Source of the DNA: Podarcis gaigeae
Lineage: Eukaryota
DNA: 64,000 nucleotides
Assembly (NCBI GenBank): GCA_964106915.2
Contig: OZ066915.1
Reading direction: 5' to 3' (one strand)
Part shown: positions 6,500 to 62,659 of the stretch, in pieces
How positions within the stretch are numbered: the first letter of the stretch is position 1
Layout of the letters: every line of letters starts with the position of its first letter
The notes under the pieces: generated by a model
What the model was told of the DNA's origin: nothing
Databases searched by the model: none
What the model saw: the letters and a program-made list of their open reading frames with translations, nothing else
Made by a program: the position numbers and the translations under genes

Positions 6500-7259
6500 T
6501 GTCAGGACTGCCGCTAGGTCCCAGCTCACAGAGGACCAACGCCCAGTGGATATTATATACAAAAGTCTTTATTGAAGTTTAGTTTCCATTTCCAAGCTCT
6601 GGGCGCGCAGGCCCACGTCTTAACGCTAGACCGGCTAAGTCCCCTCTGACTCACTGCTCCACCCACACCAGTTTAAGATTCTAGCCCGGCTCCACCTCTT
6701 GCGCTGCTCTTTCCTGCGTTGGGTCCTTCTGCCCTCTGGGGTTCCCTCCTTCCTGGACTCCTCTGACGCGGAGCCTCCTGAGTCTTGCCCCTCCCTCCGG
6801 TGGGCTTTAGGACCTGGCTCCCTTCCCGGGCTCCCCGCTGTGCCGCGCTCCTGTACATTTGAACTTGGCGCGCGCGCCCAGCCGGTGACTTTCCTTCTGA
6901 CCGTTTCCCCGCTTCCTGATGTGGGTGTTGCCAAACCTGACTCCTCTCCTCCCTCTGGTGGTGAGGACACTGGTCCCGACTCCTGGGACTCCCCCTCCCC
7001 ACTGCGCTCTGGTGGAGACGCTGGCCCTGATCTCCAGCTGCTGTTCAGAGACTCCCCGCTGGCCCCTCCCTCTTGAGGTTTCTCCCTTGGAATCTCCCTT
7101 GCTCTGGCCACCGGCGCTCCCTTCTGTGAGTCCTCCGATTTGCTAGAGAGGCTTGTGGAATAACTCTGGCCACTGTCACTGCCTGCGCCCCCCTCGTACT
7201 CCTCCTCCTCACTCTCCATTTGCTCCCCCTCCTGTGTCTCTCCTTCTGAACCCCTGACA
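6500..7259 (-). mobile_element. Solo-LTR-like retroelement, copy A (760 bp), carrying a 194-aa ORF (7219-6635)
   Basis: Ends TGTCAGG...CCTGACA; perfect 5-bp TSD ATTAC (6495-6499 / 7260-7264); AATAAA at 6573-6568 about 70 bp from the 3' end; roughly 85% identical to 22358-23117 with no gaps across the ORF. Confidence 0.85.
6635..7219 (-). CDS. Putative LTR-encoded Ser/Gly/Glu-rich protein with C-terminal Arg-rich motif (copy A)
   Basis: 194-aa ORF, 82% identical (35 differences in 194 aa, no gaps) to the copy B ORF; synonymous changes exceed non-synonymous ones by hand count. Confidence 0.5.
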   Translation of the reverse strand: MESEEEEYEGGAGSDSGQSYSTSLSSKSEDSQKGAPVARAREIPREKPQEGGASGESLNSSWRSGPASPPERSGEGESQESGPVSSPPEGGEESGLATPTSGSGETVRRKVTGWARAPSSNVQERGTAGSPGREPGPKAHRREGQDSGGSASEESRKEGTPEGRRTQRRKEQRKRWSRARILNWCGWSSESEGT

Positions 7260-16300: not shown

Positions 16301-19300
16301 AATCAGCCCTGTTTCAAAGCAATGCTAGTTTTCAGCCAGGAATATAAAACTCAAGTAGTGATCAGACCTCTATATTGGCAAAACGGCCCATAAACTGGTA
16401 TGTGACCAAAAAGGGGCCTGGTGGTGGTACAAGAAGGCAGTCTGCATCTTTGCAACTGTGCTAGGGCCACTGAAGCTGCTTACAGCACATTGATCAATAC
16501 ACCAGGGCCTACCTGAGTGTTCTAGTCAGATGTGATCGAGATCCCTCTCTGCTCCATCGCATGGATCACATAGGCTTGTAGAAACAGTATACAGTGGTAC
16601 ATCTAGTTACGAACTTAATTCGTTCCGCAGGTCCGTTCTTAACCTGAAACTGTTCTTAACTAGAGGCGTGCTTTCGCTAAAGGGGCCTCTTGCTGCCGCT
16701 GGCACACAATTTCCATTCTCATCCTGGGGCAAAGTTCTCAACTCAAGGTAACTCTTGCAGGTTAGCGGAGTTTGTAACCTGAAGCGTTTGTAACCTGAGG
16801 TGTTTGTAACTCGAGGTACCACTGTAGAATAGTATGCACATTTACTAGCTTTATGAAAAAGTACATGCAAGTTGCCAGACAAGCGGCAGAGACATCTGGT
16901 TTTGACCATCTCCCCAAATATAAGATCATGCTTCAGCAATGCCAATGCAAGGCACAGCTGGTGACAACAAGGGTTTAGTTGGCCTATAAAATGCCACAGA
17001 GAGAGGCAACAGCCCACTGAAGCCAGGGAGAATGTAATGCCGCTCCAAAGCTGTAAAGAAATCTCAGCGTTACACTACACTACACCCATATTTTTGAGCT
17101 GCACTTACCTAATATTTTGAGTTGATTGATTACACCATGGATCGTGAAAAATACCCACAGTGACTGCGAGGTATCAACACACATCAGCATCCCACGGTTG
17201 ATCCCGTTTATTCCATGGTGCACTTCTCCATTTGGCAAGACCACAAAGCTGAGGATGTCCCCATTGTTGAGGACTGGGAAACCTCGGCAAACCACCCAGT
17301 ATTCCTTGCGATCCAGAAGGAAGTCTGGATCCGCTGGGAGCTCATTTGTTCGTAAAGTACCAGGATCACAAGAAGTGATGCCAAACGTGAGGGCTCCATA
17401 GTACGGCAGCCCCAGGTGTCCAACTTCCACAAAAAGGCTTTCGCCAATGTGCAAAGGCCGGTCGGAAAACACCAAAGTCCTATTGCTCTCTTGCCAGTTG
17501 GTGCAGGCAGACATCCGGTCCTGAGAAAAGTTAATGTCGGGCCCACGAGTAGGGTGGAAACGCAGATCTGTATCGAGAAAGGCAGGCACCACTTGGGCAA
17601 GCTGCCGCCTGCTTGGACAGCAAGGGATGGTGTGATTATCTGTCGGCAGCGCAGGCATACGGCTCAAGTTCAGATTAGCAATTTTGGCCACCACCTGGTT
17701 GTTCTCCAGTTCGTTGTTGTTGAAGTTGGCTGAGTCGTGGCTGCTCTGTGGAAGGCAAGTGCTGAGTCGTGCGTTGCTGAGACGGGTGGAGGTCATCGTC
17801 TCGGCAAACATGCTGTCTGTGAGGCAATGACAAGGAAAAGCTGTATTAGAGGCAAGCTGAAAATGGCAGCCTACCCTGGCTTGATCGTTGCTTTTTGGGC
17901 ACTCCATCATACTTAAAACATCAAATATGATACTTTTCCTAATCCAATTGTGTTTCCAATTAAAGTGGGCAAAAGGAACATAAAGAAAAATATCTGGAAA
18001 CACAGAATTTTCAAGGCAGTTAGGAATTCTTCCGTCAAACAAAGCTCCACCAGTATTTGCTATTCTACGGGAGCACTGTCCAATGGAACACCATACTACA
18101 AGCGGGTTGCCCGATGCAGGGGCCTCTATTCCTTTCAGACTTGTATTTGGTGCTCACAAAAAGAGACCTGTTTCTGTTCACTGCCTCACTCAATTGCAGA
18201 AAAGCAGATTCTGCAAACTACACTACCTGCTGGAGAGAATAAATATTCCTTCCTTGTCTCATCTCTCTCATGCCTCCGCACCCCCACCCCGTCCTTGCCA
18301 ATTTAATTCATGTAAGAGAGACTGGAAAGAGAATGCATTTAATCACTTTAGACCATTAATAATAAATTGTGTGTAATGTACTTGCATGCTAAAATAGCAG
18401 TAGTGACCTTTAAAAAAATGTTTCAAAGCACACTACAGACTATTTGTTACTGACAGGCTACATGAACAAGCGACAAACTCTCTCCCAGCACAACATCCCA
18501 TCTGATAGCGCCCAATGTAAACAAAAAAACAAAAAACCCACAAACATTTCTAGCCCCAAAGCATAAAACTAGAAACACATCACTCCATATGAACCATTCC
18601 CCTGTATAGTTATTGATAGTTGATAATGAGAAAAAGAATGCGTATAAGGAAAGCAAAGGGCAAGATACTTCGGCAAATTTTGATTTAGGACATTCAGATT
18701 TCTAAAAGGAAGAATCATCCTAAGATTATTTCCCCAAAGTCTTAGATCTATAATCTGGGGGCCACTACCTAGACGGTAATTCATGCTGAAATCATGGCAT
18801 GACTTGTGGATGGCAGCTTAAGGCTGCAGTACTGTGCGTGCTTACTTAGGAATAAAACACACTGAATTAAGTGGGATTTACTTCTGGGAAAACGTACACA
18901 GGTTTACACTGTTAAACTTGATTTTAAGTTACACATAACTCTGCTGCATTTGCATGCATTTTAGCCGCCTTAAAAGTGGAAATGTATTGAAAATTTATCT
19001 GAAGGGCTTAAAGTTGACTATCAATGCATATATGGAAAAATCAAACGTATAAAACAGCTTTCAATTTTGATTAGCCACATAGCTTTTCTTGACAGAAGGA
19101 ATCTGGGAGGGGGTGTTAAAGTAAAGCCTGTCTTCTTCCTCAGGATCCCAAGTAGCCAGTTCAATATTTCAAAGGAGTGGCTTTCTCTAAGTGCTTAAGT
19201 CATAAAAGCTTCACATCTACAATGTTAAGAGTTGATATAATGAATTTGTACATAGTGCATCCTGCTTTGTGAAGCATCTACAGTTCTATATTTGGAACAC

Positions 19301-22300
19301 CCTCTGTTCCCGTCTTCCAGCCACTCCCCAATTACTGACGCTACAAAAGTGATCCAACTTGGCCCTCACTTTCTCTTACATTTCTACCTGTAAAATGGTA
19401 ATAATAGTGATCTATTTCATATGGATGCTCTGAAGGGAAAGAGGCGGCCAAGCACTTTTGAAAGCTCTGATCAAAATTCAGCAAGAGTTAAGTGCTGTTA
19501 TGCTCATTTATTTTAATGGGGTTTTGGCACGCAGTCCAAATTAATTGACTGTGGCCAACAAGTGCTATAGCACATTGTAAACTATAGTTCTACAGACTAC
19601 AGGGGGGGAGAGAAATGGCCTGGTTTCTACCTGCTGCCTCCACGGACAAGCTAGCCATTGTATAATTCACTTCATAGGAGCTGTGCCCCTTCAACTCTAC
19701 CCAGGGTCATAATGCAGGATCTAACACACCACATAGCTTTCTGACAAGGCTTAGTAGGGCACAGTGAAAATGTAAAGACAATTTTCAGAATCACGCTAGG
19801 TCTTGGTATGGCATAAATACCCACAAGGCACAGAATAAATTTCAATAGCCTTTGGGCAAGGCACTTAACTATTCCTAGGTGATTGTTTAATTTTAAGCTG
19901 AAAAAGTGTCCCTTGTTTGTGTTGCAGAAGGACATGGAAAGGGGGCTTAAGAATTTGGGGAGGTGGGGAGAGGTTGTAGTCGTGGTTTTCAAAATTTTAA
20001 GCACCCCAATTTAAACCGTGCCTACTTAAGAATGATTTGAACTATTTTCCATTAATGCATTCATTATGTCATTATTGCTGAAGCTACGTTATCTTTAACA
20101 ATCATGTCCACAATTAAGATGACAGGAATGCCAAATCTGTCCTTTGAAGTCAACTGTAGAGCTGGAGATATGTGCAGTAAACCAATACCAGAAAGGGGGG
20201 AGGGGGTTGTGACAGCTTTATTCAGATAACCCCGGAGTACACCAGACACATGTATTAGTGCTCATGTTCTGAGAACACTGGAAGCAGCAGATTACATCAC
20301 AGGCAGCATCCAAGATCCCTAGTGCTTTGTAAACACATACTATCAGGCTTGTCTATAAGGACAAAAATAAGTCCACAATCATGGCTCACTGAGCTGTACT
20401 TCTAGGTACGCCAACTGAAGCCAAGCTATCACCTGAACTCTACAGGACAAGGTGATAAATCAAGAGCGAGGAATCTCTTGCCTGGACAGAATAGATTCAA
20501 GAAGAGGAAAAACCCAATGCTTTGGAAAAGCTTCCAAACTCTTGGAAAGAGAATTACGACATTGCTGCCCTCGCTGGAGTCCTCTGATAAGCAGAGAAGC
20601 TGGCGTTTCTCTTGTGTCAAGGTGCTGTGCTTTCTAAAAAACCCTGATAGGGCAGGAATGCCACATGAGAGGCTCTAAGTGGCCGTCACAGGAGATAATG
20701 GTTATAAAGCCTGAGCTGGAGAGGGAGGATGAATCATGGCACTGCATGGTACACACAGCTGGCAATTTGTGGAGCCAATGCAAGGGGAAGAGGCCTCATG
20801 CCATTGGATTGGTCTCCTTGGTTGTGGGGCTCACAGATCCAAAAGTTAAAAGCTTTCTCACACCAAGGGCACCAGTGCAACAAACACACCTACAGTTTTA
20901 TCAAGCGAGCTTATGTAATAGGAACAGGCTACCAATATAAATACTATGGGCAGTTTCTGGCGTTGGTTTTAAATTTCTGAAGTGTTGGCGTATTAATTTA
21001 GGCAACTGTAATTGGAGAAAAAATATCTGTTGCCAGCTTATCTGCCCCATGGTGCAATCCAATTTAACCACGATGGAGCAGAACGTCCGCCTGAAGATTT
21101 CATATTTTCACCATTGCTTATTTCATTTATTTATTACATTTACATTCCACCTTTCCTCCAAGAGCTCATAGTGGCACACCTGGTTCTGTCCTCCTCAGTT
21201 ATTACCCTCACAGCAAGCCTGTGAGGTAGGCTTGGCAGAGACACCGTGAGCTTCATACCTAGGTAGGGATTTGAACCCGAGTCCCAGGAACAGTGACTGG
21301 ATGAAAATGAAAGCTTAGTATCCGGGCTTTACACTTTACAACATAAGCACTGCTACCAACCTCACACAGCTTGTTCTGAGAGATGGGAGACATGACAAAA
21401 GGGTCTATACAGAAGGAGAATTTTTTTTTTAACAGACCATATACACCTACCTAGTATTTGCACTTCATGTGTGATTCCATAGACATCTATCAGTGCCCAG
21501 AGAGGCCCAGAGACTTTGACGCCACAGTGAAACAGAATCGGCTCTTCATCATTAACGCTATAGAAAACTCTCCCATGGCGGTCGACCCAGAACGCCAAGA
21601 TGTTGTCTCTTAGTGCAAACCTCTCTGGCAGGGCTTTGGCCCAGAAGCCTGGCCGTGTCACCAGGTCTGGGCAGGCGTATTTTGGTATGTCGTCTGCGCT
21701 CATCTGTGATGGATCGTGAGTGGTGAAGCCAAAGCGCAGGGCCCCGCTCCACCCGTGGTGCACAGACACCAGCTTGAGACGCACTTTCTCGTAGAGGTGG
21801 ATGGGCCGGTTGGTGAAAGTGACGCCGTTGCAGAAACTGTTCCTCCGAGTGGCTTTGCGGGAATGGGCATCCAGGCGTATGTTTTTTCCTTTGGCCTGGA
21901 AATGGAATCGCGGAGGTTCAGTAATGGTGAGGACAGACCGCCTCTCATGGCTACTGTTAGGCAGAGTGTAATAAGGCCTGTGGGATACAGAGCGAGCCTG
22001 TTGACTGGTGTCTGCAAATAATAATAATAAAAAAACAGGAAGAAGAGGCATTGTTAGGAATTTGCTAATTTAGGTTGCAATGCTAAGAAAACTGCTCCCC
22101 TCCCCCCCCGCCCCCAGCTACTGATATGTGCAGATTCTAGGCTAGATTTTAACAGACTAATCAGATACGAACACGCTCCTTATTTGGACAAAGTTCCTCT
22201 GCTCCCTGTTCTTGTAATCCTAGTAAGAATGACATTTTCCCAGTGGATAAAAATTCTGTCTCTCAGCCAGTGTTCAGCTGGAACCAGTTTTTAAATGAAT

Positions 22301-25300
22301 ACATTGCTAGATACAACTGACACCTCAACAGATACACAAACAAAAAAAAACCTTAGCTGTCAGGGGTTCAGGAGCAGAGACACAGGAGATGGAGCAAATG
22401 GAGAGTGAGGAGGAGGAATCCGAGGGGGGTGTAGGCAGTGACAGTGGTCAGAGAGATTCCACGAGTCTCTCCAGCGAATCGGAAGATTCACAGAAAGGAG
22501 CGCCGATGGCCAGGGCAAGGGGGGTGCCAAGGGGGAAACCCCAGAAGGAAGGGGCCAGCGGGGACTCCCTGAGCAGCAGTTGGAAATCAGGACCAGCTTC
22601 CCCACCAGAGCGCAGTGGGGGGGAGGAGTCCCAGGCATCGGGACCAGTGTTCTCACCACCAGAGAGAGGAGATGAGTCAGGATTGACCACGCCTCCATCG
22701 GAGAGCGGGGAAACGGTCAAGAGGAAAGTTACCGGCTGGGCGCGCGCGCCAAGTTCAAATGTACAGGCGAGCGGCACAGCAGGTAGCCCGGATAGGGAGC
22801 CAGGTCCTAAAGCCCGCCGGAAGGAAGGGCAAGACTCAGGGGGGTCAGCGTCAGAAGAGTCCAGGAAGGAGGAAACCCCAGGGGGCAGAAGGACCCAGAG
22901 AAGGAAGGAACAGCGCAGGAGGTGGAGCCGGGCTAGGATCTTAAACTGGTGCGGAAGGGATAGTGACTCAGAGGGGACTTCGCCGATCTAGAGTCAAGAC
23001 GTAGGGCTGCACGCTCTGGGGTTTGAAATGGAAACTAAACTTCAATAAAGACTTTTGTACATTACATCAACCGGGCGTTGGTCCTCTGTGAGCTGGGACC
23101 TAGAGGCAGCTCTGACATTAGCGCACTAGGTTGAGGTGGGGAGATCCAAACTGCAGTAGTCACACTGCTACTGTTTGAGGCCAAAAGAGGAACTGACTAG
23201 ACAATTTCATGGCTGACATAAACAGATTTGCTCAACAACTGCTTCTACAATCTAAAACATGGGTAGGCAAACTAAGGTCCAGGAGCCAGAACTGGCCCAA
23301 TCGCCTTCAAAATCCGGCCCATGGACGGTCTGGGAATCAGCCTGTTTTTACATGATAGATTGTGTCCTTTTATTTAAAATGCATCTCTGAGTTATTTGTG
23401 GGGCGTAGGAATTCATTCATTATTATTTTTTTCAAAATATAGTCCAGCCCCCCACAAGGTCTGTGAGACAGTGGGCTGGCCCCCTCCTGAAAAAGTTTGC
23501 TGACCCCTGATCTAAAACTTGGGGCAATTGTTAAGTAGGCACCCCAGAAGACAGAGATAAGTTAAGTAGGCAGCCAGTCTGGAGCCCTGTACCCCAGGCA
23601 GCCTATGTGTGCTACTGAGAGCAGAGAGGAAGACTGACATAAAGAGAAGCTGCCAATATGTGGTAATGTTACTTGCTGCCACCCTTCTGCCTCTTTTTGG
23701 TCCCCAATGCATGTCCTGTTGGAAGTGACTTGAAGCAACAGTGCCCTCCTCTACCAATGAGCTCTGAAGCAGACAGGTAGATTGTATGTTTGGAACAATG
23801 ACCGCATATCAACAAAAGGAGGTGGCAGATTTATCTTAGTGGCACTGAACACCTCCAAGATGACCTGCCCATCATTTAAAAAGAGAAAGTGAGTCACCAA
23901 GTTAGTAACTAATCTGCAAGCAACTGTTGGACCACCCCAGGCAACCAAGCATTTAACCATCCCTAAAAGGCCCCTGGTTCTGAGCTCTAAGTGCTATCTT
24001 TGGCCTACTTAGTATCCACAACATGCTTTGTAGCTCTAAGAACTAGTTTTCAATTGTATGTTGCTGCAAATGTTAGCTGCTGATGGCTTTAATTCTGGAA
24101 ATCCATTTGGGGCATCATAATTGTGTTTTAGCATAAACAGCATGCATTTTCCCTTATCCAATCTTTATTACACTGAACTACAAGATAAAATAGGGCCATC
24201 AGAAACCCCCAAAGCTAAATGAAGCAGCCCTAGGGCGGAGGTGGGGGAAATTGGCTCCTAATGAAACTGTTTTTGTAAGTCTGTCCTATGACTTCCCCTT
24301 ATGGCAGGAACAGTGTCATGGCAAATATTCAGTAATCATTTCCCTTATTTTTAATGAACCACACACACACAAAATAGCTCAGTGAGACAAGATTAAAGCT
24401 CCCACCCTAATAAACCCCAAACACAAAAGTCAAAACAGTTTTATTGTAATTACAAGTAGCCACATGCCGAAATATTAACATAGCTGGAAAACAAAACTGC
24501 ACTAAGGTCCTGCTTGGCACTTTACACGGGAGGAATAGGGATTTGTTTAAATATATTTTAAAATACCTTCACAGCAGGAGCTTCAATATTTTTGAATTGA
24601 TACTGTGCAAGTGACAATTGTTTCAAATAATGGCAACACCTCTCCTTAAAAACAAACAACACATTCCTAACATTTGTGACTTACTTCTTTTACTTAACAG
24701 TAATTAAAATGCATACCAAAAAGTATTAGCTGACCTCAGCAGCCACACACTAAACAGCCCAGAAGAACTCTACTTCAGAATTGATTCCTGCCAATTCTCT
24801 CCCATTATTTCCCTCCCAACACCCAGACAGGCTCTTTCGATTGCATAAAGGTGAATTCAGAAAAAACCCAGTCAGGTGTTGCACTTCTAAGCCACGTTCA
24901 CACCATACATTTAAAGCATGATACCGCTTTAAACAGTCATGGCTTCTTCCAAATAATCCTGGGAATTCACAGAGCTGCCATTTTCCAGAGTGGTTAAACA
25001 ATCAATCCCTCTTCACATGAACTCTAGGAAATGTAGCTCTCTGTGGGGAAGAGGGGCCTCCTAACAAACTACAGCTCCCAGAATTCTTGGGAAGTGCATC
25101 ATAGTGCTTTAAATGTGTGGTATGAATGCAGCCTAATAGTTGCAGATTCTGAAAGCATTTCACAGGGTCTCTCAGTCTCTACAGACCTTTCTATGGAAGC
25201 AGCTCAAGAATGCAATCCAACCCATTCCAGCCTGCAAATACATCCCACTGTGTTAAGTGGTGTTTATGTACAAGTAAACTTGCACAGGACAGGGCAGCAA

Positions 25301-62413: not shown

Positions 62414-62633
62414 GTATCTCAGGTTACAGACGCTTCAGGATACAGACTCCGCTAACCCAGAAATAATACCTCGGGTTAAGAACTTTGCTTCAGGATGAGA
62501 ACAGAAATCGCGCGGCCGCCGCGGCGCAACAGCATTGGGAGGCCCCCATTAGCTAAAGTGGTACCTTAAGAACAGTTTAAGGTTAAGAACAGACCTCCAG
62601 AACGAATTAAGTGCTTAACCTGAGGTACCACTG
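62414..62633. mobile_element. Tc1/mariner MITE of the same family as 16592-16824, opposite orientation, one end damaged
   Basis: Ends ...GAACGAATTAAGTGCTTAACCTGAGGTACCACTG-TA; internal sequence resembles the reverse complement of the 16592 element. Confidence 0.75.
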
Positions 62634-62659
62634 TATAGAGAAGTTTTAAATAGTTTTAG

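Follow-up and report, generated by a model that had tools for sequence, protein, structure and literature searches.

An open frame in a lizard solo LTR is very probably the C-terminal tail of a chromovirus Pol and ends in an arginine-rich motif

The open frame that spans most of a solo LTR of the lizard Podarcis gaigeae is almost certainly the tail of a Ty3/gypsy chromovirus Pol, and the arginine-rich motif near its end is the last conserved element of that Pol. By sequence and by analogy, the best explanation overall, and one that we consider probable, is that this motif would act as a C-terminal nuclear-import or chromatin-tethering motif of integrase, carried on an LTR-encoded tail.

Two solo LTRs share one open frame

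We analyzed a stretch of 64,000 nucleotides (assembly GCA_964106915.2, contig OZ066915.1; hereafter, the window), in which two LTR copies, A and B, are 86% identical without gaps (Table 1). Both copies have the TG...CA ends and 5-bp duplications of Ty3/gypsy LTRs. The window contains no internal Pol remnant, and no internal retroelement sequence adjoins either copy; hence, both are solo LTRs. When contigs of public sequencing runs were compared with the window, depth dropped at 22358 and 23117 in every run examined, and contigs matching the LTR element numbered in the thousands (6,597 in run X1). Runs X1 and X10 each contain an empty-site contig joining 22349 to 23118, which means that insertion A is not fixed among the material sampled there. 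One contig of run X1 joins 23117 to 22357 with 15 letters in between, as a near head-to-tail LTR pair or a circle junction would. Judged by the positions of AATAAA and of the putative TATA-like CTTAAA, the arginine-rich motif sits close to the inferred U3/R border; Sushi-type LTRs are described in PMC3601003 as carrying AATAAA and an AT-rich box near the 3' end.

Table 1. Coordinates of features in the window
Feature	Position	Strand	Remarks
Host exon region with Neuralized domain	21362..22051	-	Pfam PF07177, E 1e-45
Solo LTR copy A, Ty3/gypsy chromovirus-type	22358..23117	+	760 bp, TGTCA...TGACA ends
5' target-site duplication TTAGC, copy A	22353..22357	+	
3' target-site duplication TTAGC, copy A	23118..23122	+	single copy at empty site
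Solo LTR copy B	6500..7259	-	760 bp, target duplication GTAAT
Open frame, very probably the LTR-encoded last part of the Pol/integrase tail	22359..22991	+	210 codons and stop
Corresponding frame in copy B	6635..7258	-	stop four codons earlier; motif at 6659-6733
Acidic serine block (14 residues)	22464..22508	+	most invariant segment in family
KRKV..RAPSSN block	22719..22767	+	includes longest DNA stretch identical in both copies
Arg-rich motif with RW...L.WC core, C-terminal motif of integrase tail	22884..22958	+	
CTTAAA, candidate TATA-like box under ILN codons of motif	22940..22945	+	both copies; inferred
AATAAA polyadenylation signal of LTR	23044..23049	+	both copies

Reading from LTR base 2, the frame is uninterrupted in both copies, and the five other frames contain stops. 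An initial annotation of the window had the protein begin with MESEEEE; the acidic stretch is there, but it does not mark the start, as the frame is already open upstream and this Met is present in 2 of the 10 relatives listed. Another Met, shortly before the LTR start (MD-VRG), occurs in 9 of the 10 relatives listed from the window's clade, and the sister clade has Val where the window's clade has this junction Met. Repeated SPP motifs are present as described (GPVFSPP in copy A and GPVSSPP in copy B).

Between copies A and B, dN/dS over the frame is 0.23-0.25 (0.23 when counted from the Met at 22398, with 42 synonymous and 38 non-synonymous differences), and base differences at codon positions 1 to 3 number 13, 24, and 47 (p=2e-5). 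The copies differ at 38 residues, compared with 54.4 +/- 3.8 expected if the 84 base changes were placed randomly; none of 20,000 random placements gave 38 or fewer residue changes, and 17,761 of them created a stop. The indels listed in the frame among sequencing-run contigs are few and of low depth, and one is in-frame. Among the 40 variants listed of 183, 35 are in-frame, a small preselected set: within the motif 4 are synonymous and 2 are not, and outside it the numbers are 12 and 17. We conclude that the LTR frame is under purifying selection as a protein and that the motif is real coding sequence.

The motif is conserved in character more than in identity

Both copies carry the motif with the sequence and coordinates first reported, and copy B differs from copy A at two residues. 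The initial count of eight synonymous and two non-synonymous differences was reproduced: 10 nucleotide differences lie in 22898-22956, 8 of them in residue-keeping and 2 in residue-changing codons, and the AGA/CGC double change that preserves Arg is among the residue-keeping differences. Counted by codon, the motif has 7 synonymous and 2 non-synonymous differences, compared with 29:33 in the rest of the frame (Fisher p=0.15), and the ratio becomes 7:6 when the motif is widened by four codons on each side. The lowest count in any 25-codon window, 2 changes, is shared by 13 windows, and 99% of 20,000 codon shuffles contain at least one such window with 2 changes or fewer.

A family profile was built from 8 representatives under 85% identity, out of 17 aligned sequences. 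On this profile, motif identity is average (0.62 versus 0.60 on average, which places it 82nd of 186 windows), but similarity is near the top: its BLOSUM62 score ranks 3 of 186, and its C-terminal 15 residues rank 1 of 196, with the high scores of W and C accounting for part of this. The acidic serine block is more invariant, with an identity of 0.91 in the 8 representatives and 5 synonymous to 2 non-synonymous codons between the copies. Hence, the motif is not clearly the most constrained part of the frame, which it had been proposed to be. Its invariant residues in the 8 representatives are T, three R, W, L, W, and C, and its basic charge (9-12 K+R of 25) is kept in all eight. The motif also has the highest synonymous rate (0.47 versus 0.31), so its DNA appears free while the protein is kept; the TATA-like hexamer under the ILN codons means that part of the constraint may nevertheless be on DNA.

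The acidic serine block presumably fits a CK2-type site consensus. The longest stretch identical in copies A and B (37 nt, 22731-22767) has a GC run and TTCAAA, and we take it to resemble E2F/CHR cell-cycle promoter elements; given this identity, the KRKV..RAPSSN block may also be a promoter element. A role of the LTR-encoded region as a nuclear localization signal or under phospho-regulation, suggested at the outset, is plausible.

The frame matches the end of Pol

A search among proteins of near length gave 6 matches among 576 candidates, three of them named from Podarcis lilfordi, and cluster members of the P. lilfordi matches extend upstream of the LTR start. Among longer proteins, 4 of 8,000 scored were matches, all of them Podarcis muralis gypsy Pol records that carry PR, RT, RNase H, integrase, and SH3 domains and have the window frame at their C-terminus. 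A class III ERV or snakehead-retrovirus-like 3' ORF, considered at first as the identity of the frame, was dropped after this match to gypsy Pol. Aligned with full-length Pol records, the frame corresponds to their final 209 residues at 62-69% identity; in P0010, which has the order PR-RT-RNase H-integrase, the C-terminus is 68% identical. An integrase core motif and the RW..L.WC motif occur in one chain in 14 of 239 collected proteins, these full-length records being gene predictions from one species, many of them near-identical. P0157, a 415-aa protein, runs from the chromodomain to the motif on a contig of 1,384 nt, which leaves little room for introns; this record gives independent support for chromodomain-to-motif continuity. 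Directly before the LTR-start residues VRG, 8 of the 10 relatives listed have GGFEGGMD, and such a G/E-rich peptide at the junction is consistent with a purine tract.

A profile search with the LTR part found 4 proteins among 1.84 billion representatives, all from the window's family. The Pfam search of the window frame and short relatives gave nothing above cut-off, the PDB profile search of the LTR part gave 0 matches at E 10, and the ESM Atlas search gave no usable match. The likeness to HIV-1 Rev, which had been presented as compositional, is indeed of composition only, with no Pfam or PDB match behind it. In full-length members, Pol runs ~360 residues past the chromodomain and across ~630 of the 760 LTR bases, in the order integrase, SH3, chromodomain, acidic linker, LTR start, Arg motif, and stop. 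The separate accessory or trans-activating factor first envisaged is not supported, and the frame is very probably the C-terminus of a Ty3/gypsy Pol/integrase polyprotein.

Two further features of these records were noted. First, the acidic linker that separates chromodomain and LTR (residues about 1133-1290 of P0010) contains clusters of conserved aromatic residues (FDDWLF, SYWWDD, and W..KW), and the sister clade has repeated F.GF acidic motifs; in sequence, these motifs look like short protein-binding motifs. Second, P0049, P0060, P0225, and P0226 are Podarcis, Rhineura, and Anolis gene models in which chromovirus Pol is fused to host genes (vomeronasal receptor, TM9SF2, PCBD2, and KCNQ5 by record name), and these fusions are probably annotation artefacts or exonisation.

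Chromodomain cage and tail length vary across clades

In the structure model of P0018, the integrase resembles Ty3 (7Q5B, E 3e-30) and a chromodomain fold is predicted at about 478-525 (pLDDT about 88-90). Residues 540-896 are almost all below pLDDT 50, and the motif has no confident fold or contact, in line with the disorder first suggested for this region. Pfam Chromo was not detected at the chromodomain position in the window's clade, and PF00385 scored at that position in the sister clade. All 11 of 11 PDB matches of the chromodomain piece are HP1/CBX chromodomains (best E 0.017).

Alignment to HP1 has all three cage aromatics replaced in the window's clade, which thus lacks the three-residue aromatic cage of group I (HP1-like) chromodomains. 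Scoring covered the records that match the search pattern: aromatics at cage positions 1, 2, and 3 were found in 0, 0, and 3 of 22 records of the window's clade, in 11, 25, and 0 of 25 scored (30 listed) of the sister clade, and in 36, 36, and 35 of 36 scored among the 99 other matches. All three are present in P0053-type (6 scored of 15) and Anolis records (20 scored of 33). From sequence and model, the chromodomain of the window's clade appears degenerate, with the fold kept and the methyl-lysine cage lost.

Tail lengths were counted in records reaching their end. The chromodomain is followed by 353-366 residues in the window's clade (401 in one record with an internal duplication), 179-194 in the sister clade, 126-132 in P0053-type records, 105-117 in Anolis records, and a median of 7.5 in the other matches (82 of 99). 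Judging from junction residues, the tails of the other lineages would also be LTR-encoded. In a midpoint-rooted tree of 49 integrase pieces taken from the best matches, the window's clade and the sister clade are joined at 100/99, and all squamate long-tail lineages are joined at 80/77 only; the trend between cage loss and tail length spans about four lineages.

Arginine-rich tail ends in related lineages

At its end, the sister-clade tail has an Arg-rich segment containing LL.W; this segment aligns to the window motif without gaps, and of 38 windows compared with the sister clade, that of the motif alone stands clearly above shuffles (z 4.9). Support is weak in whole-tail shuffle tests, which involve no window picking and gave 16 to 143 of 1,000 (six non-independent pairs); cross-clade profile matches gave 1 to 77 of 500. 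The motif is the only LTR-encoded segment that is, weakly, recognisable in the sister clade.

Other lineages end differently. RRS(A/L)R(I/L) lies at the end of the LTR-encoded tail, 12-22 residues from the terminus, in 17 of 20 Anolis and 5 of 5 P0053-type tails; the RRSAR core is present in 13 of 20 and 5 of 5 (Podarcis), respectively, and absent from the window motif. RRS.R occurs in under 1% of shuffles, and the tails that carry it represent two lineages, not 22 events. They belong to P0053, P0203, and P0208-P0210 (Podarcis muralis) and to P0054, P0057, P0059, and P0212-P0236 (Anolis carolinensis), in both species within the last 25 residues. The window-family profile had no similarity above shuffles to Anolis or P0053-type tails. 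P0053 against Anolis tails scored 284 of 2,000 shuffles, so the shared RRSAR is not backed by wider alignment. In HMGN2, RRSAR is described as binding the nucleosome acidic patch (a passage of PMC12487698). At the sequence level, the likeness of these Anolis and Podarcis tails to HMGN/Dsup is a five-residue match, and the window motif does not have the string. RRSAR-type tails are possibly a more testable lead than the window motif.

A proposed role for the tail motif and its alternatives

Genomic RNA of such elements includes the U3 of the 3' LTR, which reverse transcription duplicates into each LTR, so any Pol frame that enters U3 turns up in every LTR; in a solo LTR, transcription starts downstream of U3 and thus does not include it. 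Because U3 is copied into both LTRs, the frame and its selection record would be present in every LTR, solo copies included. U3 of a solo LTR lies upstream of that LTR's presumed start site, and so both solo copies are fossils of the element's 3' end. Selection would act on active elements, and a solo LTR would carry the frame without expressing it. The mature integrase would bear a long disordered, acidic, serine-rich tail that ends in a short basic-aromatic motif. This motif would bring the integration complex into the nucleus and/or tether the complex to chromatin, taking over from a chromodomain whose fold is kept and whose methyl-lysine cage is lost. By analogy, we lean towards such an import or tethering role.

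A bolder version, possible though in our judgment doubtful, is that lizard chromoviruses moved chromatin targeting into the LTR, with an Arg motif at the integrase end that anchors nucleosomes and a chromodomain cage lost stepwise while the tail lengthened from about 110 residues to 360, an arrangement convergent on the CR motif of CRM elements. As part of this tentative version, the anchor would be an HMGN-like RRSAR in Anolis-type lineages and the basic-aromatic motif in the window's clade.

We considered three alternatives. First, within the particle, the tail motif might bind nucleic acid, whether genomic RNA, primer tRNA, or cDNA ends, and serve as a chaperone or condensate former without any part in choosing chromatin. 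An Arg-rich, disordered tail with acidic and basic blocks would suit this activity, as would conservation of charge plus a few R/W residues, but the invariant W, L, W, and C suggest a protein-contact motif over plain charge, and related lineages end in the RRS(A/L)R(I/L) string that binds the nucleosome acidic patch in HMGN2; we consider this alternative unlikely. Second, and less likely still, the frame might yield an accessory protein of Rev/Tat type, translated from a subgenomic RNA or cut out of Pol by protease, that acts in trans on RNA export or LTR transcription. The acidic-then-basic layout and the Met just before the LTR start fit such a protein, and protease release is compatible with the sequence; however, the frame is continuous with integrase without a stop, the window's own Met is rare among the relatives listed, the sister clade has Val at the junction, the parent element is not a retrovirus, and Pfam, PDB, and atlas searches gave no match. 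Third, it is very improbable that the frame reflects passive read-through and that conserved promoter DNA in U3 accounts for the apparent motif, as CTTAAA under the ILN codons and the 37-nt identical block (1 synonymous change in 11 sites under a 14-residue segment) might suggest, given the codon-position bias, the high synonymous rate of the motif, and the few frame indels; for the frame as a whole, passive read-through is largely refuted.

Comparison with known systems

Two features of this arrangement have precedents: a Pol frame that reaches into the 3' LTR and carries a targeting motif (CRM group A), and overlap of pol with the LTR (pufferfish V-clade). In plant CRM group A chromoviruses, Pol runs into the 3' LTR and encodes the CR motif in a variable integrase tail, according to passages of PMC3059260 and PMC3605345. 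In the lizard family, too, the Pol frame enters the 3' LTR, where a short conserved motif is encoded. Unlike CRM group A, in which the CR motif replaces the chromodomain, it appears to keep a cage-less chromodomain fold ahead of the tail and upstream of the putative purine tract, and its tail is about 360 aa; the CR motif was compared by description. Overlap of pol with the LTR is mentioned for pufferfish V-clade1 in part of PMC11117352. The lizard family resembles vertebrate V-clade/Sushi-type chromoviruses in domain order and in the position of SH3 and chromodomain, a likeness drawn without V-clade reference sequences; it differs in that more than 80% of the LTR is overlapped, the overlap is measurably under purifying selection, and all three cage aromatics have been lost alongside it.

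Ty1 integrase has a disordered C-terminal tail with a nuclear localization signal and a targeting motif (PMC8487063 and PMC7459421), and the tail is a CK2 substrate (PMC9673352). The lizard family similarly has a large disordered tail, as predicted, with a basic end; unlike it, Ty1 is a copia element whose tail lies outside the LTR, and no homology is claimed. HIV-1 Rev and Tat, HTLV Rex, and the U3-overlapping nef and sag are separate retroviral genes. The window frame resembles Rev, Tat, and Rex in the composition of its Arg-rich segment and nef and sag in being coding sequence inside U3. In contrast to all of these, it is not a separate gene with its own start but the Pol end of an element without homology to them.

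In the literature searched, which covered few subscription journals and repeat-database reports, no description of the lizard family, of cage loss, or of an HMGN-like motif in an integrase was found. Integration-site choice of vertebrate LTR retrotransposons is little studied, and one genus here offers a natural series from intact cage and short tail through partial cage to no cage and long tail, with tail motifs that are short peptides directly testable for nucleosome or importin binding. The Pol-tail identity would explain the apparently selected frames in thousands of lizard solo LTRs annotated as hypothetical proteins, and it cautions against taking LTR frames under selection for accessory genes. 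Should tethering prove wrong, the family would still show an overlap of pol and LTR that is extreme in extent but ordinary in kind.

Genomic surroundings of the LTRs

Copy A lies in an intron, antisense to the host gene and ~0.35 kb upstream of the Neuralized exon region. A second Neuralized-domain exon of this gene, which we take to be NEURL1B-like, is found at 17080-17910 on the minus strand, and the promoter of the gene may correspond to a GC-rich island at 59-61 kb. Both LTR copies are in or near a gene, with no sign of special targeting. A small element with imperfect 21-nt inverted ends lies at 23253-23514, 135 nt downstream of copy A, and presumably resembles a hAT-type MITE. Another repeat, with 25-nt inverted ends starting TACAGTGG, is present at 16590-16826 and about 62418-62637; its two copies are 75% alike and, by appearance, represent a Tc1/mariner-type MITE.
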